From the NCBI GenBank assembly GCA_037444665.1, contig JBBILZ010000049.1, forward strand, positions 1 to 17,207: DNA of 17,207 bases, read 5' to 3'. The notes beneath the pieces were generated by a model. That model did no database searches. It was not told the origin of the DNA and saw nothing but the letters and a program-made list of their open reading frames with translations. The position numbers were made by a program, and so were the translations under genes. Positions 4,100-17,203 of the stretch are shown one piece after another. This DNA comes from a candidate division WOR-3 bacterium. GTDB lineage: Bacteria > Hydrothermota > Tepidihabitantia > SM23-42 > JAOAFX01. Within the stretch, counting starts at the first letter, position 1. Each line of letters starts with the position of its first letter.

Positions 4100-4672
4100 C
4101 TACAAAAGTAAACTCATTCCAATACCCGTAAGTATTGGAACTGAGAAATTATCATCCCAGGGCAAGGGCAGTGCCTCAAAAATGGTAGACATCAAAGCAC
4201 CGGCAAAGAGAATCCAGAAAGGCACATTAAGCAGTGAATGGAGTATTACAACAACAATCACATTTGAACCAAAATAAGCAAGACTGCCAATCAGGGTTTT
4301 TTTAAATATTTTAGGACTTTTAATATTCTGCCCGAACATTGCTGCAAATGTATCACCAACAATTACAAATGAACAGGCAGATATAACGACCGGTCGGGAA
4401 AATAAAAATGCCGTGATCAAACAACCAAGCAATAAGAATGTAGCTCCGCTGAGATTAGTAAGTTCGCGCCGGCGTAAAAATGAACCAAAAAAAAGGATAA
4501 AACCTTCTTTTACACCATTAATATGTAATCTTATAAAATCTATAATAACAATACATGCAGTAACCAAAAGCAATAATGTCCGCGCCGATGCTTGAGGCAA
4601 AAGATAGTAGAGAACCGGAATAAATATTGCCCAGAGATTTAAAAGTTTACGAAAAACCTCTGCCTTAAGCAT
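4100..4672 (-). CDS. CTP-dependent polyprenol/phytol/diacylglycerol kinase family (SEC59/DGK1/VTE5) membrane protein
   Basis: Multi-TM protein with N-terminal E..RK, then LRRRE...SGAT, GDTFAA.FG, KT..GS and DDNFSVP motifs. Confidence 0.8.
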   Translation of the reverse strand: MLKAEVFRKLLNLWAIFIPVLYYLLPQASARTLLLLVTACIVIIDFIRLHINGVKEGFILFFGSFLRRRELTNLSGATFLLLGCLITAFLFSRPVVISACSFVIVGDTFAAMFGQNIKSPKIFKKTLIGSLAYFGSNVIVVVILHSLLNVPFWILFAGALMSTIFEALPLPWDDNFSVPILTGIGMSLLL

Positions 4673-4678
4673 TGCTGT

Positions 4679-5602
4679 TTAGAAAACGAGTCCGGCAGAA
4701 AATTTATTGGATAAACCCAAGTCTGAATGGGTAATTAAACCATAATCAAAGACCAATCTCTTATATCTCAATCCTGCGCCTGCTGTATATCTACCTCCAC
4801 TCTTACCCAGACGTCCATAGATTTTATTTTGGTACGCCAACTCTATACCGGTATCCAATCTTAATTCATCAAAAGAGAGGTCTTTGACAAGGTCAACTTC
4901 AATTGTTAATGTTGAATTAATACCAGTTAGAGGGATAAGTGGTGCTAATCCAAAAGTCATCTTTGGTGAGATATACTCTTTTGAATCGTTATCCCAGTAA
5001 ACTGGGGAAAGAATAAAATCACGAACTGTAAAACCTGCGTTCAAATTTTTTAGATTCAATCGCAATCCAATATCCATGCCACCGCCCAATCCGGATAGAA
5101 CTGCAAGGTCACGGTAGTATAATTTTAAATTTACACCGTAGGCAAAAAGATTTCTACTTTTTGCCGCATTGAAATAAAAAATCATATCTCGTGTAGAAAT
5201 TGTATCATAGGGAATTGGTTGGTTTCCATCTCCTGGTTGCTGGGCCGTATCAGGAAGGGTTGTCAATTTGATATTGCCAGCAGAAACCATTTGAAAACCA
5301 ATTCCATAGGCACTATTTATCTTAGGAATAACCAATGCACCAAATTCACTCTTTATGATGCCAGAAAAATTTTCCGCATGCATAAAATGGCAGGAACGGT
5401 CAATAAAAGGTGCATTTGCAGGATTTAAGAGCAATGCAGTAGGGTCAATGCCCTGGGCAACACCTGTGCAACCCATTCCACAGATTCTACCACCCACTAT
5501 CAATTCCTGGAATTCACCCGCGTATTTTGTAGCATTTGCTAAAGAAAAAATGACTACCAAAATTATAATGGGTAGTCTATTAAATTTTACGATGCAACAC
5601 AT
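4679..5602 (-). CDS. PorV/UPF0164-like outer-membrane beta-barrel protein
   Basis: Signal peptide, KYAGEF..L.VGGR..GMG...A...DPTA...NPA motif, amphipathic beta-strands and a terminal Phe. GAGGAG RBS upstream of ATG 5602. Confidence 0.75.
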   Translation of the reverse strand: MCCIVKFNRLPIIILVVIFSLANATKYAGEFQELIVGGRICGMGCTGVAQGIDPTALLLNPANAPFIDRSCHFMHAENFSGIIKSEFGALVIPKINSAYGIGFQMVSAGNIKLTTLPDTAQQPGDGNQPIPYDTISTRDMIFYFNAAKSRNLFAYGVNLKLYYRDLAVLSGLGGGMDIGLRLNLKNLNAGFTVRDFILSPVYWDNDSKEYISPKMTFGLAPLIPLTGINSTLTIEVDLVKDLSFDELRLDTGIELAYQNKIYGRLGKSGGRYTAGAGLRYKRLVFDYGLITHSDLGLSNKFSAGLVF

Positions 5603-6879
5603 TTTACAACTCCTCTCAAATATTTTTTTACTCTTGTGCCATGGCCATGTCGTGCCCTTACTGTAATCCTGAATTCATACTCTCCAGGCGGCACCACCTG
5701 ACCATCGCTATTCATACCATCCCAGACAATAAGAACTTCACCAGGGGGCCTTTTTAAACCATCTATTAAAGAAATTAATTTATTTCCTGATTGATTATAA
5801 ATATCAATATCTATTCGTGCCTCATCAGTGACATATAGTGCTAGTGTTGTACCTGGCTGGCGCGCAGAAAATACTGATGGAAAACAACCAACAAAAATTG
5901 CATCAATCGCAATCCAGAGGTACTGTCCACCCTCTTTTTCTGTAATAAAAACCTGACCATATCGCCTACCAATCGCAATCCCTCTTGGTGAATGGAATTC
6001 ACCTTTATCAGTTCCTGTTCTACCTTCAGATATTATGTAACTTAAATTCCGGTCAAATTTATGTATCTGGTCATTCTTGTCATCGGTAACATAAATATTA
6101 CCAAAATAATCTACTGCACAATATAGAAAATTTGCATCCGCAAGTCCAATTTCAAAACTATAAATTGAATTTAAGAATCTACCTGAAGTTGCAAACCGTG
6201 AAACCCTCTGTCCTTCGTTATCCACTACTACAATAAAATCATCATGGTAGTAGTTATTTCCTGCTTCCGCATCAATTACTTCAATTCCAAGTGGCTGGTA
6301 AATTTCACCATAAGACCTGCCCTCCCTTCCAAATGACCTCAAGAGTGAATCCTGTGGTGAATAAACATATATCTTGGAATTATCATAATCTGTGATATAA
6401 AGATTATTCTTTGAATCAAAACAAACATCAAATGGCTTACCCGGTAATTTTATCTCACTGACATATTCAAGCTTTCCTTTAGTATATTGTAATTTGACAA
6501 CTCGCCTGTTTCCGAAATCAGCGAGGGCAATCAAACCATCTTCATTTATTGTTATACCTTTGGGTTGAGAAAACATTTTATCATTACCATAGACCTTTAC
6601 CTCAGCCAGTCCAATATTATACACAATCTGCCCCCTTCCTGAATTTACTGCAAATACTGAAAGTTCATCATCATCTTTCTTTGTTTTAGGGTCATCCAGC
6701 TCCTTTAATTTAACGGCAGCAATGCCCTGGGGGTCATCATAATCAAAATTGGGTCCAATAAATAATCGTAAATAATATTTAGATGCCCGATAAAAACCAA
6801 AGGTATGCTCAAACGGTGGCACAGCCAGAGTTTGAGGCTGATATTGACTTATTAGAAAGAATATTAAATTGAGCACCAT
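5587..6879 (-). CDS. NHL-repeat beta-propeller protein with C-terminal FlgD Ig-like domain
   Basis: Repeats F..P.GI.....G.I.V.D.GN.RV and G.F..P.GI. The C-terminus IYNQSG....L....PG.....WDG.N..G..VPPG.Y is FlgD_ig-like. The start is more likely ATG 6879 or GTG 6876 than 6903, because a consensus promoter overlaps 6883-6910. Confidence 0.8.
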   Translation of the reverse strand: MVLNLIFFLISQYQPQTLAVPPFEHTFGFYRASKYYLRLFIGPNFDYDDPQGIAAVKLKELDDPKTKKDDDELSVFAVNSGRGQIVYNIGLAEVKVYGNDKMFSQPKGITINEDGLIALADFGNRRVVKLQYTKGKLEYVSEIKLPGKPFDVCFDSKNNLYITDYDNSKIYVYSPQDSLLRSFGREGRSYGEIYQPLGIEVIDAEAGNNYYHDDFIVVVDNEGQRVSRFATSGRFLNSIYSFEIGLADANFLYCAVDYFGNIYVTDDKNDQIHKFDRNLSYIISEGRTGTDKGEFHSPRGIAIGRRYGQVFITEKEGGQYLWIAIDAIFVGCFPSVFSARQPGTTLALYVTDEARIDIDIYNQSGNKLISLIDGLKRPPGEVLIVWDGMNSDGQVVPPGEYEFRITVRARHGHGTRVKKYLRGVVKCVAS

Positions 6880-6882
6880 ATA

Positions 6883-6910
6883 ATTATAAGTATTTTTACT
6901 CATTTGTCAA
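6883..6910 (-). promoter_or_regulatory. Sigma70 promoter for the NHL-PorV-kinase operon
   Basis: Minus strand TTGACA (6910-6905), 16 nt spacer, TATAAT (6888-6883), then an in-frame GTG 6 nt later. Confidence 0.75.
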
Positions 6911-6932
6911 TGGTAAATGGAAATAAAAACTG

Positions 6933-6960
6933 TTGACATAATAGCAAAAATTTATAAAAT
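6933..6960 (+). promoter_or_regulatory. Sigma70 promoter facing the diguanylate cyclase
   Basis: TTGACA (6933-6938), 16 nt spacer, TAAAAT (6955-6960), back-to-back with the divergent promoter. Confidence 0.65.
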
Positions 6961-6965
6961 ATTAT

Positions 6966-7133
6966 GTGCAAAATTTAGTTATATTTAATTTTTCAAAGGA
7001 ATTAACACTCAGACATAAATTCCATCTTCCTATCCTGCTTATAACCAAGAAAGTTCTAATGCATTCCATTACAAAACCTCCTGAAAATTATAAAGAATCC
7101 TTCAGTATCAACGATAAATTATTTTCTGATTAG
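6966..7133 (+). CDS. Possible leaderless small ORF (55 aa, MQNLVIFNFSKELTLRHKFHLPILL...DKLFSD)
   Basis: GTG 5 nt after the -10 box. The frame is open for 55 codons in AT-rich DNA and stops 6 nt before the DGC start. No recognisable homology. Confidence 0.3.
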   Translation: MQNLVIFNFSKELTLRHKFHLPILLITKKVLMHSITKPPENYKESFSINDKLFSD

Positions 7134-7139
7134 GATAAA

Positions 7140-9098
7140 ATGAAGTTCTTTTACATACTCGCTATTATTTACACACTAATTGCTGCTCGTGGTATATTTC
7201 AGTTCAATGTCAATACAAAATTAGGATATTTTTTACTCGGTATATTAATGTTATACTACATTTTTTACATATTAAAAAAGAAAATCCAATTTTATCATAC
7301 AGTTATTGCCGGAATATTTATTAATATTTTAGTCCAATTAACAGGCGGATTAAAATCTCCATTCTTTGTCTTTTATTTTCCGGTTTTACCCATTATTGGT
7401 TTCCGCGAGCACCAGAATAATTATTGGTTCTGCGCCGCTGCCATTGTTCTTATAGAATTAATTTCCAGCATTTTTAAACATCATTTTAATATACTCCCAC
7501 TGCTATGCCTCGCAGTGGCAATTATCATCACGGGCATCATTATCAATAAGATATCTCAGCGTGAAGACCGATTAAAAAAATCATTAGCCCGTTACGAAGC
7601 ACGGGATTATTTCTTTGGACCGGCTGATTTTGAAAGTAAAAATCTTATTACTTCAATTAAGGATATTGATAGACATCCGGGTATTGAAAGGCCATTGCTC
7701 TATTACATAAAGTTCATTCACAACATTTTTAATTGTCATACCACTGCCATCTTTTCTTATAATGAAGATAAACTTGTTCTTGTGCAGGGTTTTTCACGCT
7801 CCGAATTATTTAAACCTGATACAGTTTTAAATGTGGAGCGTGGATTATACCGCCAGGTTATTATGGAAAAAAAAACAGTGCTCATAAAAGAGTTTGTCCA
7901 GAGTTCTGATGAACTCGGTTTTTATAGAGGAGATGTCATCCTTTCATCTGTGATTATTGCACCAATCGTTATAATTGACCGTGTGGAAGGGATTTTTGTT
8001 ATTGACCGTAAAGAGAATCATTTTACTGAAGAGGACAAAACAAATTTTGACGAAGCAGCAAAAGGTGCAGGATTTCTGATTGCTATGCTCAGGTTATATG
8101 AAAAAGAAAGGTATGAATCTCAGTATTTATCTTCAATTGCCGAACTTGCACGCAGATTACAGCGTGGCCTTGAATTGAAAGCAATTGTTAATGATACAGT
8201 TAAATCATTTCGCTCTGTTTTAAATTGTGATGACCTATCAATTGCGGCAATTGATGAACTGAATAACCAGGGCACAATTATTGAATCTACTTATTTAAAA
8301 GAAAACATAAAATTCAGTTTGGATGAAGGACTTGTGGGGCTTGTGGTCAGGCATCAGAATTATATTATGAAGGAAGATATGAGTGAAGGCAATTTAATTG
8401 TTTTTAAAAAAGGAGAAAAGAAAAATCGTGGTTCCTTTCTTGGCGTTCCAGTAAAAGGTGACCACGAAGTTTTAGGTGTAATATGGCTTGAAGACCACCG
8501 TCGTAAAAGATTTGGTGACGAGGATATTGAAGCACTCAACATCCTTTCATCACAGCTAACACTTGCCTGGCAGAGGGCAATTCTCTATGAAAGGGTTAAA
8601 GAACTATCAATAAGAGATGGTTTGACTGGACTATACAATCACCGGCATTTTCAGGAAATTCTGGAACAGGAACTAAAAAAACAGCGAGAATTGATTTTAT
8701 TATTATTTGATATTGATTTTTTCAAAAAAATAAATGATACTTATGGACACCAAGCAGGTGATGAAGTTTTGAAATTCATTGGTAGGCTCATATCACAAAC
8801 TGGCATTTCTGGAAGGTATGGGGGCGAAGAATTTGCAATAATTCTACCTAACTGCAGTTTGAAAAAGAGTGCTGAAATTGCTGTCCGTTTAAAGGACCAC
8901 ATCAATAAGTCTGAAATACAGTTCAATCAACATAAAATAAAATTCACTATAAGCATTGGTATTGCCCATTATCCAAAGGATGCAAAAAATCGGGTTGAAT
9001 TAATAGAGCAGGCAGACCGCGCCCTTTATTCAGCAAAAGAAACTGGACGGAATAAAATTGTGATTGCCAAATCCCTGACTCCAGAACAAACATCGTAG
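7140..9098 (+). CDS. Membrane-bound diguanylate cyclase with two GAF domains
   Basis: About 5-6 N-terminal TM helices and two GAF domains (F...D...L motifs). GGDEF domain with DGLTGLYN, DIDFFKKINDTYGHQAGD, RYGGEEF, TISIG and ADRALYSAKETGRN. Confidence 0.93.
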   Translation: MKFFYILAIIYTLIAARGIFQFNVNTKLGYFLLGILMLYYIFYILKKKIQFYHTVIAGIFINILVQLTGGLKSPFFVFYFPVLPIIGFREHQNNYWFCAAAIVLIELISSIFKHHFNILPLLCLAVAIIITGIIINKISQREDRLKKSLARYEARDYFFGPADFESKNLITSIKDIDRHPGIERPLLYYIKFIHNIFNCHTTAIFSYNEDKLVLVQGFSRSELFKPDTVLNVERGLYRQVIMEKKTVLIKEFVQSSDELGFYRGDVILSSVIIAPIVIIDRVEGIFVIDRKENHFTEEDKTNFDEAAKGAGFLIAMLRLYEKERYESQYLSSIAELARRLQRGLELKAIVNDTVKSFRSVLNCDDLSIAAIDELNNQGTIIESTYLKENIKFSLDEGLVGLVVRHQNYIMKEDMSEGNLIVFKKGEKKNRGSFLGVPVKGDHEVLGVIWLEDHRRKRFGDEDIEALNILSSQLTLAWQRAILYERVKELSIRDGLTGLYNHRHFQEILEQELKKQRELILLLFDIDFFKKINDTYGHQAGDEVLKFIGRLISQTGISGRYGGEEFAIILPNCSLKKSAEIAVRLKDHINKSEIQFNQHKIKFTISIGIAHYPKDAKNRVELIEQADRALYSAKETGRNKIVIAKSLTPEQTS

Positions 9099-9164
9099 TT
9101 TACAATCTGTATCACTATCCATTTTTACTTTCCTAAATTTACTAATACCCTGCAAGTTGCATTA

Positions 9165-9260
9165 TTAAAAAACTGCCCCGGAATTCAGTTTGGTAGAAAT
9201 GTGGTAAAAATATCTTTAAAAATCATAAACAAAAAATCACTTCAACAATTAAATAATTAA
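9165..9260 (+). pseudogene. Vestigial HD-GYP C-terminal tail
   Basis: Translates LKNCPGIQFGRNVVKISLKIINKKSLQQLNN*, which aligns with LKSLSGIQFDRNVVKTFLKIIEENSSFKHLNN of the HD-GYP fragment at 16822-16932. Confidence 0.75.
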
Positions 9261-9369
9261 ACAATTGTTTAACTATTTAAACGTCCATTAAAGTATTTTT
9301 TAAAAATTTTCTTGTGGTTCAGTTTTGAAATATGCTACTAGCCAGGAATGTTTATACAGAACATACATC

Positions 9370-9405
9370 AATACGGCAATACGACAATTGTCGTATTGCC
9401 GTATT
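9370..9405. repeat. Perfect 36-bp palindrome
   Basis: AATACGGCAATACGACAA|TTGTCGTATTGCCGTATT, with no loop. Confidence 0.95.
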
Positions 9406-9446
9406 CTCAAATTGGGTTAGTTGAAAATAAAATTCAGAAAATATCT

Positions 9447-9503
9447 GTAGCGTTCGGCTTCAGCCGGACGAAAACGAATCGTCCATTTAAAAATGGACGC
9501 TAC
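9447..9503. repeat. GTAG-type REP doublet (REPIN-like)
   Basis: GTAG-CGTTCGGCT-TC-AGCCGGACG (9447-9470), a 9 nt spacer, and an inverted GTAG-CGTCCATTT-TT-AAATGGACG (9503-9480, minus strand). Confidence 0.7.
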
Positions 9504-9539
9504 AACCTCCTCTGAACATAAGACTATTACACTATACAA

Positions 9540-11777
9540 CTATCCACCCATCAAACCATCTAACAATTTCTGTATCTCCTCTGAATCCGGAATTATCTTC
9601 AGGACGTTTTGCAAAACCCTTCTGGCATCGGTTTTATTCCTATGCTCAAGGCAGCTTTTGGCAAAGTTTACTGCCTCGGTCTCAAGTTGAGACAAAATCT
9701 TAAATCGCATATTCACTGACCAATCATCAAAATTCTTCTTAAATGGCTCACCACGGAATAATCTAAATGCCCGCAAATACTCTTTTTTTGCAAATCCCCA
9801 TTCTCCTGCCCGCTCAAGTGCCTTTGCTTGTGCTAATGTTTGCTCAAATTCCTGTAAGTCCGTGGTAAAATAGATTCCTTCGTTTATTAAAACTGGCTCT
9901 CCATAACCCCAAGACACAATCAACAAATGGGTAGGTATCTTTAATGCCTTTTTAATTCTCACTAAAAGATGCGAAAAATTGCGGGATGCTGTTTCGCTTC
10001 CAGGCCAGAAATTCTTATAGACCTCCTCTAAATTTATCGCCTTTTTCGGCTCCATTGCCTTCTGGCTGAGATAGATTAAGAACGCAGCATCCTTTGGCCT
10101 CAATCTTACCTTTAAGTATTTTTGGTTCTTGTGGACCGCGAAATGTCCGAGAAGTTTGAGATTATATATCAGTGTTTTTTTATTAAATACCGGGAATCTT
10201 AATAAGCTTTTTGGTAGTCCCGTTGCTATGCCTTTTTCAATCAGGAGTTGTATTATTTCTGGGAATAGAATAGAAACACGATGTAGAATTCCCAGCAGTC
10301 CCGCCTTTTCGGCATATTTGTAGGCTTTTTTGTAATCACTTGTTTTCAAGGATAAACTGCTCTTTTTCAGTAAAAAAAGGAGATAGTTCTGGTGTATCTG
10401 CTTTATGTCTTCAGAAACTTTTGGATTGTTTATGATAGTTTCATATAAGAGCAAATCTTTCTTATTACCATATCTTTTGAGTAATGGTAAATATCTCTTT
10501 AATAAAATTATGGCCTTGTTTCTTTGACCCTGAGCAGAGTGGATAACTGCAAGAAAGAATGTTGCGAAACCCCAATAAATTCTGAGTTCCATTTTTTTTA
10601 CGATCTCTAAGAATAATTGCATCTGATTCATTGCCTTGAAGATATCTCCTTTTTGCACTAAAAAATACTGGGCTCTTTGAAGAACATACGAAGGATTTGT
10701 TTTTTCTTCTTTGTTTTTTAATCGCTGCATAAGAGTATTATATTTTTCATATTCCCCCTGGGTGATATACAATCGCGATTTTAAGAATAGTACATCATCC
10801 TCGTTAAATTTATTTTCATACACTTTCAGGATGCGATCGAACTTTTGGAAATAACCAAGATTATCACAAAAAATAAGAAAGTTTCGAACAAAGTTAGAAG
10901 TAGGATACTTTTTGATTAGATACTCACATTTTCGCAACAAATCTACCGCTTTTTGGACCTCAAGACTTCTTGCATAGGCAATGCCTTTAATACAATAGAT
11001 AGAGAACCTCACAGCAGGGTCTAAATTTTCCTCCGGACAAAGCTTCCTCATATGCCCCAATAAGACAAGCTCCCTTTTAATTTTACCGCTTCCAGCATAG
11101 CAAAGAGCCTCCAGAAGCCCTGTTCTAATTGCTGAATACACATATCCTCTACTTTCAAAATTCCTCCGTAGTTTCATTAATTTTTGTGATAGGAGATTAT
11201 ATGGAATTTTGCCAAAAAGGGAGTAGTATTTTTCCAGCCTTCGGCAAGGGGCAAGAAACTTATCCGGAATATTCGTCAAAATCTCATTTTTTGGACAAGA
11301 GGGCATCTCATTTAAGATCTTCCCGGCTTTTTGGAGATTATTCAATTCCACATATCTCCGTGCCTCTTCTAAAACATATTTTGCTTCGGGTGTCCCAGAG
11401 ATATAATCTGCAAACTCCAAAGAATAACTTTCTTTTTTTAAAGCGACATACCCATATCTCGACCAGACTCTCCATACTCCTTTGATAGAAATTTCTATAC
11501 CTTGTTTTTCAAGAATTTCTTTTGCCTTTCTGACTGTTAAGGCAGGTTCCCTTTCCTTAAGAAGAGCAATTCTTTCTTCTAATTCTCCTTCTGTTCTGCT
11601 TCGTGGCCTGGTATATATCCCAAGTAGACGCCTTTCACCTTCTTCCTTATACGCCTTTACCCATTTAAATACAGTTCGGTAGTTTACATGAAATTTTGAG
11701 GCGGTCTGCATCAATGTGGTATTATTCTTTAAATAATATTGAACAATAGCGAGACGAGTTTCTGGTCTTATGTACAT
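9540..11777 (-). CDS. Transcriptional regulator: transposase-like N-terminal HTH, TPR-like helical region, SARP-type winged HTH + partial BTAD
   Basis: The N-terminus TASKFHVNYRTVFKWVKAYKEEG...RP.SRT..ELEERI..L.E..P......L...GI.IS...VWRVW resembles IS481/IS630-type DNA-binding regions, with no DDE domain. The C-terminus L.LLG.F.V, FWP......N....L.RIKK.L, DL.EFE, A..L.RGEPF...DDW is SARP/BTAD-like. Start moved to ATG 11777 because of the promoter position. Confidence 0.75.
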   Translation of the reverse strand: MYIRPETRLAIVQYYLKNNTTLMQTASKFHVNYRTVFKWVKAYKEEGERRLLGIYTRPRSRTEGELEERIALLKEREPALTVRKAKEILEKQGIEISIKGVWRVWSRYGYVALKKESYSLEFADYISGTPEAKYVLEEARRYVELNNLQKAGKILNEMPSCPKNEILTNIPDKFLAPCRRLEKYYSLFGKIPYNLLSQKLMKLRRNFESRGYVYSAIRTGLLEALCYAGSGKIKRELVLLGHMRKLCPEENLDPAVRFSIYCIKGIAYARSLEVQKAVDLLRKCEYLIKKYPTSNFVRNFLIFCDNLGYFQKFDRILKVYENKFNEDDVLFLKSRLYITQGEYEKYNTLMQRLKNKEEKTNPSYVLQRAQYFLVQKGDIFKAMNQMQLFLEIVKKMELRIYWGFATFFLAVIHSAQGQRNKAIILLKRYLPLLKRYGNKKDLLLYETIINNPKVSEDIKQIHQNYLLFLLKKSSLSLKTSDYKKAYKYAEKAGLLGILHRVSILFPEIIQLLIEKGIATGLPKSLLRFPVFNKKTLIYNLKLLGHFAVHKNQKYLKVRLRPKDAAFLIYLSQKAMEPKKAINLEEVYKNFWPGSETASRNFSHLLVRIKKALKIPTHLLIVSWGYGEPVLINEGIYFTTDLQEFEQTLAQAKALERAGEWGFAKKEYLRAFRLFRGEPFKKNFDDWSVNMRFKILSQLETEAVNFAKSCLEHRNKTDARRVLQNVLKIIPDSEEIQKLLDGLMGG

Positions 11778-11787
11778 ATATGGAAAC

Positions 11788-11816
11788 ATTATACAAAATT
11801 TTATATGGTTTGTCAA
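11788..11816 (-). promoter_or_regulatory. Perfect-consensus sigma70 promoter of the regulator
   Basis: Minus strand TTGACA (11816-11811), 17 nt spacer, TATAAT (11793-11788). ATG at 11777 has no SD. Confidence 0.85.
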
Positions 11817-11929
11817 GAACGAAATTGGCTGCTTAAAAATGCCGTAATATCAACAATTTTCTCGCATCCCCCAGTAAAAAGCAGACATAGTTTTTATTAT
11901 ATCATTATATGAAAGGGGGTGCTATTATT

Positions 11930-13540
11930 ATGGGGAAAAATTTGACAGCTATTATGTTAAGTGCGTTTTGTCTGTTGCTCAATGCCCAGGTTCCTCTGGA
12001 GACGACTCCTTTCTGGATGTCAAATATAACTGCTGATACACGTGAAATCACGTTTGCTGATATTGATAGTGACGGCGACTTAGATATGGCGGTCAGTACC
12101 GAAGTTCCAAACGTGAATTCGACACATATCTATCTCAACCTTGGCAGTAGTCTTGAGTATTTCCCTTCAATGATACTGCCCACCGCAGGCTCTATGGGCA
12201 TAGCATTTGGTGATGTAGATAATGACGGAGATCCTGATGTTGCAGTCGGATACTCTATGTCCCTTTCCGGACAACCTGTGAAACTTTTCAAGAATAACGG
12301 CGGTATCTTTGATACGATCCCGGCCTGGACAGGTACTACCGGAGCATTATGGTGTGGATGGGGGGATGTTGACGGGGATGGTGACTTGGATCTTGCGACA
12401 GTTGACATATTGAGTGACGCAGCGGTCTACCTGAACAATAATGGAATTTTGGAATCAAGCCCATCTTGGCGTGCAGCCGACGGTTATCAATGGGATATAG
12501 TGGGCACCTGGTTTGATGTGGATGACGATGGTGACTTAGACTTGGCGATTGGGTTAGATTGCAGAATATATTTAAATAACAATGGTATTTTAGAAACCAT
12601 TGCCTCATGGCATCCGGATATATCTATTTTTAATAGTGCAGGGTTAACCGCTGGTGATATTAATCATGATAATCTACTTGACCTTGCAGTTGGCTGTGGG
12701 GCAAGTGGTAGTCATGCACCCAATCTTTTGTACTTTAATTCAGAATCTGGACTTGAAAGAACACCATCATGGCTCTCCGGAGATAGTTCTATGACCTGGC
12801 GTGTTGCTCTTGGCGATGTCAATGCAGATGGGTATCTGGACTTAGCGGCCGCTAATTTTATGGGTGCTGATGTTGTGTATTTGAACACCGGTGGAATTTT
12901 AGAAATAAACCCTTCCTGGAGTTCCGATGAATTAGAAGATAGTTATGGCATTGCCTGGGTTGATTTGGATAACGATGGTTTAGTGAATAGGATCGATACC
13001 CTAACTGGAGACGGGATACGAAGATTGTTTTACTTTTCACATGTTCCTATTCATAAGTTATACAGAGTATCTGTCGGCGGGGCGCCGTTACCCCTATCTG
13101 ATTATTGCCTTGACCCATTCGCCGGTTGGATTTCTTTAAAGGAAGCACCAGCAAATGGTAGTGAAATTTTCATACAATATTCTTACTCAATAGACATGGA
13201 ACTGGTGGTGGGAAGTCCATCTCCAGCGGCTTATCGGAATTCTATGATAGGTATTGAAGAAAAGACAAAAACCCCATGTCCAATATCATTGTTCAGAATT
13301 ACGCCTACCGTTTTAAAAAAAGGTTCTAATATTTCATTCATCTTGAATAGATCAATAATAGATGGAGATTTGTCTTTGTACGACATACTGGGCAAAGAGA
13401 TTAGCCACAAACATATAGGAACGATGCACATTGGCTTACATACTTGGACTGAAACAAATAAATTAGTTCCAGGAATTTACTTCCTGGCTATTAGCGTTAA
13501 TGGCGAACTTGAGGTTAAAAAGTTCCTTATTTGTGAATAA
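11930..13540 (+). CDS. Secreted FG-GAP/VCBS repeat beta-propeller protein with T9SS-type C-terminal sorting domain
   Basis: SD AAAGGGGGTG before ATG 11930 and a signal peptide ending LNA|Q. Seven D.D.DGD.DLAV repeats and a C-terminal GIEE...LYDILGK...PGIYF..KK motif. Confidence 0.85.
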   Translation: MGKNLTAIMLSAFCLLLNAQVPLETTPFWMSNITADTREITFADIDSDGDLDMAVSTEVPNVNSTHIYLNLGSSLEYFPSMILPTAGSMGIAFGDVDNDGDPDVAVGYSMSLSGQPVKLFKNNGGIFDTIPAWTGTTGALWCGWGDVDGDGDLDLATVDILSDAAVYLNNNGILESSPSWRAADGYQWDIVGTWFDVDDDGDLDLAIGLDCRIYLNNNGILETIASWHPDISIFNSAGLTAGDINHDNLLDLAVGCGASGSHAPNLLYFNSESGLERTPSWLSGDSSMTWRVALGDVNADGYLDLAAANFMGADVVYLNTGGILEINPSWSSDELEDSYGIAWVDLDNDGLVNRIDTLTGDGIRRLFYFSHVPIHKLYRVSVGGAPLPLSDYCLDPFAGWISLKEAPANGSEIFIQYSYSIDMELVVGSPSPAAYRNSMIGIEEKTKTPCPISLFRITPTVLKKGSNISFILNRSIIDGDLSLYDILGKEISHKHIGTMHIGLHTWTETNKLVPGIYFLAISVNGELEVKKFLICE

Positions 13541-13559
13541 CTTTTGAGGAGGTGTAAAA

Positions 13560-16214
13560 ATGAAAAAAATATTAATTTTTTGTGTACTGATGTGCAATCT
13601 TTTAGTTAATGCAGAAGAGCAGGTAAAAATGATTGAAAAGATTAAAGAAACAATAAAAATGGAAGTTTGTCCAGACGAAAATTATCTAGCCAAAATGCTC
13701 CTTCATTCACCAGAACAACCCAATCTTTCACCATTTACCCTGACTGAATTCTTAATTGATACAGCAATAATTCAACAACAGCTTCACGGCGGGCGCAATC
13801 CGGCTATTGCTTTTGATGGCACAAATTTTATGGCTGTTTGGAGGCAAGTTACCGTAGCCTATTCGGGATTATATGGCGTGAGAATTTCCTCCGAAGGCTC
13901 TATTATTGGTGATGTCTTTCGTATATCTACCATAGCACCAATTGACCAACCTGATATTATTTTTGATGGCACAAATTATTTTGTGGTATGGACCGGCAAT
14001 TATAATTGTGTCTATGGAGCGCGGATTAAACCTGATGGGACTGTGATTGATACAAATGGATTCTTAATTGCAACTAACAATTCTATTGCATATACCCCTG
14101 CGGTTGATTATGGTGTGGGCAGATATCTTGTAGTGTGGGAGGTGACTGCTGGGAATTTTGATGCCTATGCGGCTCTTGTTGATACGAACGGAACAGTTCT
14201 ACTCAATTTCCCGCTTGAAAATGATCCGGTTCTTGTTGGAGCCTTGCCGGATGTCTCTTTTAATGATACGGATACTATGTTTTTAACAGTATGGTACGGA
14301 ACCTACGTATTTGGGAGCAGAATTTTGCCCGACGGCACAAACCTGGACCCAGGTGGATTTAGAATAAGTAATCAAGGCTCCGTCTTATATCCAAGGGTAG
14401 ATTTTGATGGCACGAACTGGTATGTCGTCTGGTCATGGCTACTGAATGACTTTTCTGGAGCATGGGTGAGCCCTGATGGGATTCCATTCCACGAATTTAA
14501 CCATATGCCAGGTAGTTGGAGCATGTGGGTGCCGGCACTAGTGGTCGGAGATTCTGTTCACTGGTTACAGGCATTTAATGGAGGCGGAGCCAACCCCCCA
14601 GTGGATATCTATATTACTCGCATAGATTTTCGCGGAAATGTCATTGATACCCCCTGGATTCCTGTTGATACTTCTCCGGGCTGGCAAGCGTGGGGAAAAA
14701 ATACCTATGGCGACAGCACCTTTATCGCAATCTGGGAAGACCAAACAACCTGGGATATCTACGCCAGGCGGTATGCACCTGATGGAAGTCCTAAAGATTC
14801 AACGAGATTTCCTGTAAATCTATTCACTAACAACCAGAATTATCCTGGGGTCGCTTTTGACGGAACTAATTTTCTTGTAGTATATGAGGATACAAGAACA
14901 GGGAGTGGCGATATATATGGTGTAAGGATTACGCAGGATGGAATTATTATTGACCCTGTTGGATTTTTAATTTGTCAGAATGTTGGGAGTCAGTATTGGC
15001 CAAGGGTTGCATTTGGTGATTCCCTATACCTTGTAGTCTGGATATCAGATTCAGCTGTCTATGGTGCAAGAGTCTTACCAGATGGAACAATTCTCGATCC
15101 AAATGGGTTCCAAATTACCCCTACTAATAGCAGTATGCCTTCTGTTTCATATAACAATGGTGTTTTTCTTGTTGTATATAACCATGATTACAACGGCAGT
15201 GGCGTCTTCGGAATTTGGGCAACAAGGGTATCTCCTAATGGCACTGTGCTCGACCCATCTGGTGTTGAGATAGAACCCGTCCCAGGTATTAATCAACAGT
15301 TATGGTGGCCTGAGATTGCACCTCATAAAGATGGATTTTTTGTTACCTGGAATTACAGCGCTTATCCAGGAGATAGTTCAAGGATTGATGGTGCGATTGT
15401 TCAGGCTGATACTGGCTCAATAAATCCTGGTCCTACAATTCGTATCTCAACACCGGGGTTAGGTTATGATCCAGAAAATAGATGGCATGGAATAGCAGGA
15501 ACCCCAGAAAATACTTTTCTCGTCGTATGGGGGAAGAACTATAATCAAATTTACGGCACCCTTTTAGATTCTTCTGGAACAGTTCTTTCTCAGATACCAA
15601 TATGCACAGTCCAACCGAATATTGTGGAACAGCCGTCAGTTGTATTCAATGGGAAGGACTTTGTAGTTGTGTGGCAAGATTCGCGTCAGACGGCATGGCA
15701 ATACGACCTATATGGTGCCCGAGTATCGCCCAATGGAGTAGTCTTAGACACTAATGGTATTGAATTTGTGAATAGCGAATACTCAAGATTTTATGTAGAA
15801 CTTGCTTCAGCAACTCCGGATCCAGATACTGGTGCTAAAGTATTACTTGTATTTAATGGTTATGTCAGTGAACCGTACAATGGAAATCGGGCACTAGGCG
15901 CCATCTATCATCCACCAACCGGCATTAAAGAAAGTTATATTCAAAAAATTCCAACCGAGCACAGGATTACCATTTCACCAAACATATCGTATCAAAAACC
16001 TTATGTCTTGAGCTATTCGTTTCCTCGTCAAACTGAGATTAATGTGAATGTCTATGATATTACTGGACGGTTGGTGAAGAATGTCTATAACGGCGATATC
16101 AAAGAAACAGGCGAGATAAAATTTAGTTTACAAGAAATGCCTCAGGGTATCTATTTTGTCCGGGTGAAAACAGAGAATAAAATAAAGACAATGAAAATCA
16201 TTTGGCTTAAATGA
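13560..16214 (+). CDS. Secreted repeat (double beta-propeller-like) protein with T9SS-type C-terminal sorting domain
   Basis: GAGGAGGTG RBS and signal peptide. About 14 repeats of P.VAFDGTNFLVVW...IYGARV.PDGTVLD..GF.I. C-terminal GIKE..ISPN..VYDITGRLVK..QGIYFVRV..KII motif. Confidence 0.85.
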   Translation: MKKILIFCVLMCNLLVNAEEQVKMIEKIKETIKMEVCPDENYLAKMLLHSPEQPNLSPFTLTEFLIDTAIIQQQLHGGRNPAIAFDGTNFMAVWRQVTVAYSGLYGVRISSEGSIIGDVFRISTIAPIDQPDIIFDGTNYFVVWTGNYNCVYGARIKPDGTVIDTNGFLIATNNSIAYTPAVDYGVGRYLVVWEVTAGNFDAYAALVDTNGTVLLNFPLENDPVLVGALPDVSFNDTDTMFLTVWYGTYVFGSRILPDGTNLDPGGFRISNQGSVLYPRVDFDGTNWYVVWSWLLNDFSGAWVSPDGIPFHEFNHMPGSWSMWVPALVVGDSVHWLQAFNGGGANPPVDIYITRIDFRGNVIDTPWIPVDTSPGWQAWGKNTYGDSTFIAIWEDQTTWDIYARRYAPDGSPKDSTRFPVNLFTNNQNYPGVAFDGTNFLVVYEDTRTGSGDIYGVRITQDGIIIDPVGFLICQNVGSQYWPRVAFGDSLYLVVWISDSAVYGARVLPDGTILDPNGFQITPTNSSMPSVSYNNGVFLVVYNHDYNGSGVFGIWATRVSPNGTVLDPSGVEIEPVPGINQQLWWPEIAPHKDGFFVTWNYSAYPGDSSRIDGAIVQADTGSINPGPTIRISTPGLGYDPENRWHGIAGTPENTFLVVWGKNYNQIYGTLLDSSGTVLSQIPICTVQPNIVEQPSVVFNGKDFVVVWQDSRQTAWQYDLYGARVSPNGVVLDTNGIEFVNSEYSRFYVELASATPDPDTGAKVLLVFNGYVSEPYNGNRALGAIYHPPTGIKESYIQKIPTEHRITISPNISYQKPYVLSYSFPRQTEINVNVYDITGRLVKNVYNGDIKETGEIKFSLQEMPQGIYFVRVKTENKIKTMKIIWLK

Positions 16215-16268
16215 AGGTAGAAAGGCTATAGGCGTAAATAAATAATCAGGAATGAGTTAAAATAATAG

Positions 16269-16303
16269 AAGGCGGAGGTTATGTTCCCCACCTTCGCCTT
16301 TTT
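16269..16303 (+). terminator. Intrinsic terminator of the secreted-protein operon
   Basis: AAGGCGGAGGT / ACCTTCGCCTT stem (one G-U pair), 10 nt loop, T-run at the 3' end. Confidence 0.75.
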
Positions 16304-16336
16304 GATTAAAATTCTTAATTGAATTCAGAATAACAG

Positions 16337-16512
16337 ATGGATAAAATTAATTTTGATCGCTTACCAAAGGAGGCCTTTTGGAGCATCTTTATCTGGATGT
16401 GTTAATCGCCTGTTTAAAAGAGATTGTTAGGGCGTTGAAAAATGAGCCTGAGAAGGCACTGGTTGATTTGCGGGAGATTGGTAAGACACTTGATAGTATT
16501 GTGGTATCCTAA
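16337..16512 (+). pseudogene. Frameshifted ORF remnant, possibly the N-terminus of the broken HD-GYP gene
   Basis: ATG 16337 gives MDKINFDRLPKEAF. One frameshift at the TTTT run (~16376-16379) continues as LEHLYLDVLIACLKEIVRALKNEPEKALVDLREIGKTLDSIVVS*. Confidence 0.35.
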
Positions 16513-16590
16513 ATTCCAATTTTTTAAAGATTATTTGGATTTTGGGTTATTGTGATTTTTTCGGATTTAGAAATTCGGATTTCGGATTTA
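16506..16590. repeat. Degenerate 7-mer tandem/inverted repeat (TTCGGAT type)
   Basis: TTCGGAT TTAGAAA TTCGGAT TTCGGAT at 16560-16587, preceded by TTTGGAT TTTGGGT and a complementary remnant ATCCTAAATTCCAA at 16506-16519. Confidence 0.65.
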
Positions 16591-16932
16591 TCCGAGTTAT
16601 GGGGTTATCATATCCTATCAGGTTTTACTGATATTCCTGAGATTTTGAATGGTGTTAAAACCCATCATGAGTTCTATGACGGCTCGGGCTATCCTGAAGG
16701 CTTAGAAGATGGTGAGATTCCTTTGATTGGCAGAATCCTTGCGGTTGCTGATGCCTATGATGCGATGACCTCAAAAAGACCTTATCGCAAGGTTAAAACA
16801 AAAAAAGAGGCGATTGAGGAATTAAAAAGCCTTTCCGGGATTCAATTTGATAGGAATGTAGTAAAAACATTTTTGAAAATCATAGAAGAAAATAGTTCAT
16901 TTAAACACTTAAACAATTGTTTAATTATTTAA
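16591..16932 (+). pseudogene. HD-GYP c-di-GMP phosphodiesterase, C-terminal half only
   Basis: HHEFYDGSGYPEGL..EIPL.GRILAVADAYDAMTSKRPYR..GIQFD is present. The HD (HDIGK) motif and N-terminal half are missing, and the upstream 'ORF' sequence is just the 7-mer repeat. Confidence 0.85.
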
Positions 16933-17203
16933 CTGTTTAAATGTTCATTAAAGTATTTTTTAAGAGTTTTCATGCGGTTCAGTTTTGCAATATGATGCCA
17001 ACAGGAATGTTTATACAGAACATACATCAATACGGCAATACGACAATTGTCGTATTGCCGTATTCTCAAATTGGGTTAGTTGAAAATAAAATTCAGAAAA
17101 TATCTATAGCGTTCGGCTTCAGCCGGACGAAAACGAATCGTCCATTTGAAAATGGACGCTACAACCTTCCCTGACCATAAGACCATCAGACTATACAACT
17201 ATC
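16822..17203 (+). repeat. Direct repeat copy 2 (partner 9165-9544)
   Basis: Contains the identical 36-bp palindrome (17029-17064) and the REP doublet (17106-17162). Confidence 0.95.

Follow-up and report, generated by a model that had tools for sequence, protein, structure and literature searches.

Tandem modules of a SARP-like regulator and type IX secretion cargo genes, with a unit-length presence/absence difference, in an uncultured candidate division WOR-3 lineage

Unequal crossover and deletion between direct repeats, including the tandem duplications mediated by repetitive extragenic palindromic (REP) sequences in enterobacteria, are among the closest described counterparts of the locus reported here, a 7.66 kb block bracketed by direct repeats in a candidate division WOR-3 bacterium. 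The window, by which we mean the whole 17,207-nucleotide stretch that was analysed, is the entire contig C49 (JBBILZ010000049.1) of a 120-contig genome, G000 (GCA_037444665.1; G, C and L numbers denote genomes, contigs and loci). The block carries a regulator gene, REG_w, and a divergent operon for type IX secretion system (T9SS) cargo, and it forms a single unit in an array of paralogous modules arranged in tandem, which are probably gained, lost or swapped by general homologous recombination at the junctions between them. As in the enterobacterial case, repeats of a few hundred base pairs, with REP hairpins in their core, bound a unit that is precisely absent from a close relative with a hybrid junction; unlike there, the modules are very divergent in sequence though alike in function, and the repeats form the regular junctions between them, so that recombination alters the repertoire and not just the copy number.

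Chromosomal integron arrays with toxin-antitoxin cassettes are alike in having variable units split by structured repeats, toxin-antitoxin pairs at junctions and no mobility gene in the units. Integron cassettes are promoterless and end in attC. The array units described here, however, carry their own regulator and promoter, of the sigma-70 type in the cassette, and their junction is a mosaic of gene tail and REP hairpins with a perfect, lineage-specific palindrome rather than attC. Neither IntI, attI nor any recombinase domain turned up in the window or among the regulator loci of G000 and its relatives that were annotated with Pfam, the whole genome not having been searched for an integrase; the only transposase-like gene in those annotated loci is an rve_3 gene at G025:C91. 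A comparison with integrative mobile elements exploiting Xer (IMEX) likewise shows a difference in the site itself. Sites of the dif type have two 11-bp arms around an asymmetric centre of 6–8 bp, with one dif per chromosome, whereas the palindrome in the junction is perfect over 36 bp, has a symmetric AATT centre and occurs in seven copies in the genome. Nor does the block resemble a unit bounded by transposons or insertion sequences, since it has no transposase catalytic domain and its bracket is a 384-bp direct repeat instead of terminal inverted repeats with a short target duplication. Finally, in the orphan toxin-immunity arrays of Rhs and contact-dependent inhibition systems, orphan fragments of a conserved block downstream of the full gene can serve as homology for swapping, as they might here; in our case it is a regulator gene that supplies the conserved block, with its 3' end, where in those systems it is the core of a toxin gene, and the exchanged part is the neighbouring gene set.

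The regulator recalls the cluster-situated SARP activators of the AfsR, EmbR and ActII-ORF4 type, in that the modelled C-terminal 220 residues of REG_w combine an OmpR-type winged helix with a BTAD fold, and the gene adjoins its presumed targets. It departs from them in that the SARP unit is C-terminal, following a transposase-type helix-turn-helix (HTH) and tetratricopeptide repeats (TPR), and in that the putative targets are T9SS cargo genes of a non-actinobacterial, uncultured lineage. Among the listings and abstract beginnings covered by our literature search, no publication linked SARP-type regulators with T9SS cargo or described arrays of this kind, and as far as these sources reach the regulator architecture appears to be undescribed in print.

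A unit missing from the closest relative

Two segments of the window, 9164–9544 and 16821–17203, match in direct orientation over 384 bp at 87.5% identity (repeat search and BLAST, E 4e-132), with a start-to-start distance of 7659 bp, in line with the two direct repeats of about 380 bp described in an earlier sequence-only reading. That reading had placed between them a minus-strand HTH-TPR-SARP regulator, a divergent operon of two predicted secreted propeller proteins, a terminator and an HD-GYP remnant, with no integrase or transposase. Apart from the cargo, of which one protein is less certain (see below), each of these elements was recovered; the block holds no other open reading frame (ORF) of at least 120 amino acids, and neither the ORF list nor Pfam reveals an integrase or transposase domain in it.

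The closest relative, G008, whose flank proteins are 94–98% identical to those of G000 in amino acid sequence, carries on a single contig (C11) the genes of window positions 4100–9098, including a diguanylate cyclase (DGC), followed by one junction, a regulator of the type found on contig C21 of G000 (89.8% amino acid identity) and the C21 cargo operon. The left part of this junction is 98.9% identical (188/190) to the left copy in C49 and 74.6% to the right copy, whereas its right part is 89.8% identical (283/315) to C21 and 73.5% to the left copy in C49. G008:C11 is thus an empty site with a hybrid junction, the cyclase gene being followed by a single repeat as the sequence-only reading had envisaged for relatives, and the order of DGC, junction and C21 module bears out its suggestion that the block is one unit of a tandem array. 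It follows from this order that C49 continues into C21, and the end of C49 (16879–17207) matches C21:1–329 at 98.8% (BLAST). Direct repeats at unit spacing, a unit-length difference and a hybrid junction, all hallmarks of a unit exchanged by homologous recombination, are thus found together at this locus.

The interior of the cassette has no DNA match in any of the 11 other genomes of the genus beyond the first ~220–440 nt, which encode part of the SARP unit. It was, however, found in a public run from another study (X3), where it is covered from 10069 to 16394 at about 96% identity with 242 differences (record 22), and the DGC flank from 6500 to 9227 with 79 differences (record 17); the cassette is therefore real and common to a related population. 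A close orthologue of REG_w was not found in two large collections, the best match being 42% among nine loci from genome contigs and 45% among 12 metagenome loci, so the origin of the cassette could not be traced.

Other positions tell of replacement as well. At the hisG/C7 and C73 loci, G000 and G008 hold different sets of regulator and cargo genes beside orthologous flanks, that is, replaced modules. The DGC gene (7140–9098, plus strand; Pfam GGDEF 5.7e-46, and GAF) is the conserved left flank of the array; every one of the 11 other same-genus genomes has a single orthologue (73–96% amino acid identity), and what follows it varies: in G002, G004, G005, G007, G010 and G011 it is followed directly by genes that in G000 lie on C13, in five of these six then by C18 genes, and in G005 and G011 the C18 block is succeeded by C46 genes and then hisG, while G003 has a third regulator type after DGC. 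In G000, the corresponding blocks are spread over the five contigs C49, C13, C18, C46 and C7, several with regulator modules at or near their breaks (compared with L020–L025).

Paralogous modules in tandem

G000 encodes five full-length regulators, REG_w being related to the other four at 46–48% (C7), 41–43% (C18), 39–41% (C21) and 31–32% (C73) amino acid identity, along with an orphan 71-residue C-terminal fragment at C18. All five (C49, C21, C7, C18 and C73) have a copy of the junction at their 3' end, which ties the repeat to paralogous regulators, a point on which the sequence-only reading had made its proposal depend; the junction is also present at contig ends of C21, C7 and C16. Four of the five face T9SS cargo genes, and the cargo differs from module to module: S8 peptidases and a propeller protein at C21, a 552-residue protein at C7, Omp28 and FG-GAP proteins at C18. 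This supports the view that the block is self-contained, with an activator of its own and secreted cargo that varies, the activator role being deduced from fold and gene order.

The arrangement extends well beyond this genome. Among 22 regulator copies examined in eight genomes, 16 face a divergent operon with a protein bearing a T9SS C-terminal domain, three lack a detected sorting domain and three are cut by the end of a contig or locus. The regulator family was matched in 30 of 31 searched genomes of the order, with 1–13 matches per genome, and same-strand tandem arrays of regulators lie on single contigs in at least G001, G004, G007, G017, G025 and G030, four copies being present on G001:C10.

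Within the family, the last ~85 residues, which form the BTAD helices, are 86–95% identical among the five paralogues, as against 16–53% elsewhere in the protein. Where residues are identical, the codon is shared as well in 65.4% of cases (448/685) within this 3' block versus 47.4% (947/1996) outside it, a comparison from which it follows that constraint at the protein level explains most of the conservation; some likeness at the DNA level appears to be added on top. Contact with the same RNA polymerase, by analogy with AfsR, is a plausible reason for the constraint.

Junctions and the probable exchange of modules

Modules meet at the bracketing repeat, which as their junction has a mosaic make-up: the tail of an HD-GYP gene and the associated hairpin are joined by a palindrome, a REP doublet, an 8-nt tract and the 3' end of the regulator gene. 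The left copy opens, directly after the DGC gene, with a 73-nt relic of an HD-GYP gene tail (9164–9236, plus strand), which aligns at 75.9% (60/79) with the right copy, where the HD-GYP remnant has its 3' end; G008 holds an identical type of relic, at 98.9% over relic and hairpin. Next comes an AT-rich palindromic hairpin region of the TTAAACAATTGTTTAA type (9237–9342, plus strand; inverted repeats I1 and I3), 79.2% identical (84/106) between the copies; such a hairpin trails HD-GYP tails at C7, C53, C18 and in the right copy of C49, and it is likely the terminator of the HD-GYP gene. The core (9343–9508) is 98.8% identical (164/166) between left and right and 97–98% to the C21 copy, and it is followed by an 8-nt periodic tract (9509–9544; CYATNNAA on the plus strand; 83.3%, 30/36) whose length varies between copies, with period-8 arrays at C18 and C21. 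In the right copy (16821–17203, plus strand), which forms the end of C49, the palindrome occupies 17029–17064 and the REP doublet 17106–17162.

The core contains the 36-bp perfect palindrome (9370–9405; inverted repeat I2) and a doublet of GTAG-REP hairpins in opposite orientation (9447–9503; 13-mer matches, with a terminator-like hit at 9499–9480). Its palindrome is present in six full copies in G000 and a partial one at the C16 contig end, and a pattern search returned seven sites in G000, two in G008 and none in the ten other same-genus genomes, some of them with arrays. It was likewise not found in the array-bearing genomes G001, G004, G007, G017, G025 and G030, which rules it out as a general recombination site of the arrays. 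The REP family numbers 20 genome sites with at most one mismatch from the 13-mer. G000 also has five Y1_Tnp matches of the type found in REP-associated tyrosine transposases (RAYT), one of them (C18:41629–41826) between REP copies at 41443–41504 and 42079–42227. The combination that marks REP sequences and bacterial interspersed mosaic elements, namely a GTAG box with hairpin, many intergenic copies and a RAYT-type Y1 enzyme, is seen within the junction for the doublet at 9447–9503 only. Folded as RNA, the core is strongly structured (z = −6.1), its hairpins received terminator-like scores with respect to the regulator transcript, and the doublet is a probable terminator of the regulator gene. 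A known RNA family was rejected as an explanation of the core, an Rfam scan of the window and seven loci having returned three tRNAs, all on L004, and no match in the junction.

A further element has entered some junctions. About 155 bp long and resembling a miniature inverted-repeat transposable element (MITE), it has 17-bp terminal inverted repeats (GTAATAG[T/G]TTAGCCATC) and an interior that looks structured, and it is inserted in three junction copies: C7:20–174, C18:19934–20088 and G008:C11 (L016, about 5300–5450). BLAST finds 33 further matches in G000 (71–97%) and 12 in G008. We also noted a junction fragment outside any module, at C53:12815–13082, where DUF1844 and SppA-type peptidase genes, without a regulator nearby, flank the relic of an HD-GYP tail together with an AT-rich hairpin and a single REP. 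Directly after the regulator stop codon, the period-8 tract runs to about six units in the window and more than 20 at C18 (L003:11717–11875), with another tract at L001:295–541; a period-7 AAATCCG tract occurs at C21 and its complement at 16560–16600 of the window.

Toxin-antitoxin pairs sit at several regulator 3' ends. At C18:18544–19700 (L003, about 10545–11700), the regulator 3' block occurs twice in direct orientation, as 164-bp copies that are 87.8% identical, with a HEPN-MNT pair between them, forming a second bracketed insert, which supports homologous recombination between direct copies as a second example of it. The same pair (83% and 78.5% amino acid identity) stands beside a non-orthologous regulator (41%) in G004, and AbiEii/DUF6922 pairs adjoin orphan regulator 3' fragments in G007 and G005. 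At C18 and at L028:8571–9428, L027:5747–6886 and L032:3367–4506, the pair is framed by the stop codon of the full regulator and an orphan repeat of that gene's final ~70 codons. Four of the six orphan 3' fragments examined, which are 54–83% identical at the amino acid level, adjoin such pairs, and the other two are at contig ends.

Taken together, we propose that each module comprises a regulator gene that would be constitutively transcribed and would activate a divergent operon for T9SS-exported proteins, many modules closing with an HD-GYP gene. The BTAD-coding 3' block, nearly identical in all paralogues, and the homogenised junction core mean that junction copies, which share one orientation, are homologous to each other over several hundred base pairs. 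Recombination of the RecA type between such copies could delete, duplicate or insert whole modules, either by unequal crossover or by excision followed by Campbell-type re-entry, and would also change what adjoins a given flank. The core identity of 97–99% among C49-left, C49-right and C21 suggests, on sequence comparison, that the core has recently undergone gene conversion or has recently spread.

Several observations weigh against this proposal. Since the core is 98.8% identical while its flanks reach 76–83% and the adjacent synonymous sites are likewise less conserved, a recent event has acted locally on the core, and this could have been gene conversion, but also a site-specific event or a small element that spread. 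In G008 and at C7 the palindrome has stayed perfect through compensatory changes, and it must therefore be under selection for some function, a terminator or a binding site being candidates. The event is not polarised as loss in G008 or gain in the G000 lineage, as other members of the genus have unrelated genes after DGC. Contigs of the four public runs show no recombinant, circular or deleted joint (the deletion type would join ~9.4 kb to 17.1 kb), although this is uninformative, as these runs are available as contigs only, which stop at repeats. For some of the listed joints, among them 10121 to 16377 and, on opposite strands, 9554/16555, the sides are short (21–42 nt) and a derivation from paralogues is probable; the summed contig depth is raised in the bins that cover the junction and the 3' end of the regulator gene, but does not measure copy number. 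Finally, with G008 a draft, there is a small residual chance that its assembly path ran through the repeat and skipped the cassette.

A mobile cassette platform, in which an unlinked recombinase would release modules and small toxin-antitoxin units as circles and return them to any junction by way of a specific site, the palindrome or the 3' block, in the manner of integrons or IMEX, could account for direct repeats bounding a unit absent from the closest relative, for a core so much more alike than its flanks, for the compensatory changes that maintain the palindrome, and for toxin-antitoxin pairs next to four of six orphan fragments, with one HEPN-MNT pair beside non-orthologous regulators. 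We nevertheless consider it unlikely: there is no recombinase in or beside the cassette, a perfectly symmetric palindrome would give exchange no direction, and the palindrome pattern is confined to two of 12 same-genus genomes whereas arrays are order-wide. Cassettes with their own promoters also speak against it, as does, weakly, the lack of a circle joint in the run contigs. That the difference between G000 and G008 is an artefact of assembly, through a mis-joined duplicate at the end of C49 or a G008 contig that skipped the cassette, is very unlikely, even though the right copy is at a contig end, the overlap of C49 and C21 falls short of 100%, contigs of all four runs break at repeats and both genomes are drafts of 90–120 contigs. 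The flanks of the two copies differ, so they represent two loci; cassette and DGC flank recur in a second study; no cassette regulator or cargo is present anywhere in G008, which is 97% complete; and the G008 junction is continuous, with a MITE insertion of its own. Recent tandem duplication of one module followed by divergence, without exchange of modules, would explain direct repeats at unit spacing and paralogous regulators in tandem, but it is hardly credible given that REG_w and the C21 regulator share only 39–41% identity and their cargo is unrelated while the junction cores are 97–99% identical, and that the closest paralogue of REG_w lies elsewhere, at C7.

General homologous recombination at the junctions thus remains the reading we favour. 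The array is modular and hypervariable, its T9SS cargo modules are self-regulated, and a presence/absence difference of unit length is documented for it, most likely produced by ordinary recombination at look-alike junctions; dedicated cassette or mobile-element machinery is not shown. The undescribed cassette system suggested as a possibility in the sequence-only reading is not supported, because the bracket consists of ordinary junction parts, namely a gene tail with terminator, a genome-wide, RAYT-linked REP doublet and a conserved gene 3' end, and its sole locus-specific part, the palindrome, is limited to G000 and G008, with arrays being order-wide and no recombinase found.

Through recombination at junctions, secreted and surface proteins could be turned over rapidly in a way that is both simple and general. 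Each cargo set would travel with its own SARP-like activator, whose common 3' block would double as portable homology, so that whole regulated units could be gained, lost or swapped between near-identical strains. Because assemblies of this lineage break at these genes, the variable surface repertoire would be systematically under-assembled in metagenome-assembled genomes. A bolder and rather doubtful extension is that regulator-cargo modules and toxin-antitoxin units together form a cassette platform of this uncultured T9SS-bearing lineage, with circles forming through the junction or the 3' block and re-entering at any junction, without a recombinase or with an unknown one. Were this so, the platform would shuffle self-regulated surface-protein modules within and between genomes, and the toxin-antitoxin pairs at junctions would stabilise the arrays, as in superintegrons.

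Regulator, cargo and signalling genes of the module

REG_w (9540–11816, minus strand) has paired transposase-type HTH domains (Pfam HTH_28, HTH_32 and HTH_23), a TPR solenoid and the C-terminal SARP unit. The Pfam match to BTAD (PF03704) is sub-threshold, at 19.5 bits against a gathering cut-off of 22.1. An AlphaFold model of the last 220 residues, built from a 16-sequence alignment, has a pLDDT of 91.1 and a pTM of 0.85 and shows an OmpR-type winged helix followed by a BTAD helical bundle, the order expected of a SARP. The best PDB match found by Foldseek is AfsR (8hvr_I, TMq 0.71, E 7.5e-7), EmbR (2fez) also being matched, and all six fold matches with E ≤ 0.001 are AfsR or EmbR chains. A sequence search of the PDB with the whole regulator and a profile search with its C-terminus gave no significant match, leaving the fold search as the only informative one. 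The predicted fold supports SARP identity, with the SARP unit placed C-terminally.

A sigma-70 promoter of the regulator gene (TTGACA-17-TATAAT; 11788–11816, minus strand) matches the consensus at 12 of 12 positions, and its location therefore makes the ATG at 11777 the probable start of REG_w. By eye, all five paralogues have a TTGACA box (visible as its complement GTCAA) at an equivalent upstream position, and four also show a TATAAT-like box, which is not seen in the printed stretch of C18; an ATTGG motif common to the intergenic regions was noticed by eye only. The promoter lies so close to the ATG (11775–11816, minus strand) that the regulator mRNA would be leaderless or almost so. Fold and gene order together suggest that REG_w activates the divergent cargo operon; SARP-type activators have as binding sites direct repeats in the −35 part of an adjacent promoter.

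The first cargo gene (11909–13540, plus strand) encodes an FG-GAP repeat protein (FG-GAP_3 6.1e-32) with a weak C-terminal sorting domain, its Por_Secre_tail match reaching 18.9 bits, below the 27-bit cut-off. The second (13560–16214, plus strand) encodes an 884-residue protein, a putative propeller in the sequence-only reading, with internal repeats (D2 and D4) and a T9SS C-terminal domain (residues 823–881, 35.4 bits, above the same cut-off). The prediction of two secreted proteins therefore stands for the second, while the sorting signal of the first stays below threshold. G000 encodes the T9SS translocon component SprA (SprA_N 76.4 bits, C10:5349–6401) and has 98 Por_Secre_tail matches. 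Foreign origin was rejected on composition: the GC content of the cargo genes is higher (41–42%), but their GC3 of 0.34–0.36 is inside the range of neighbouring genes (0.26–0.41).

A GC-rich terminator-like hairpin (16268–16295, with its T run read on the plus strand) follows the cargo operon. Beyond it, a broken HD-GYP gene (16337–16932, plus strand, with an ORF remnant at 16552–16932) matches Pfam HD_5 over profile positions 87–170 of 170 only, the C-terminal half. It is 83–89% identical in nucleotide sequence to a 219-residue HD-GYP gene at C7:4449–5108, with 93 nt replacing 204 nt. Modules repeatedly end in a short HD-GYP gene that stands alone, at C7:4449–5108, at 16337–16932 of the window, at L028:6916–7596 and at L082:2–478. 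The position of the array directly after a GAF-GGDEF cyclase, together with these module-final HD-GYP genes, hints at a possible link between the modules and cyclic di-GMP signalling. Additionally, DNA encoding the C-terminal sorting domain of one C73 cargo gene (L004:2738–3068) matches about 27 places in G008 at 68–87%, and the sorting-domain ends of cargo genes thus constitute a second dispersed homology.

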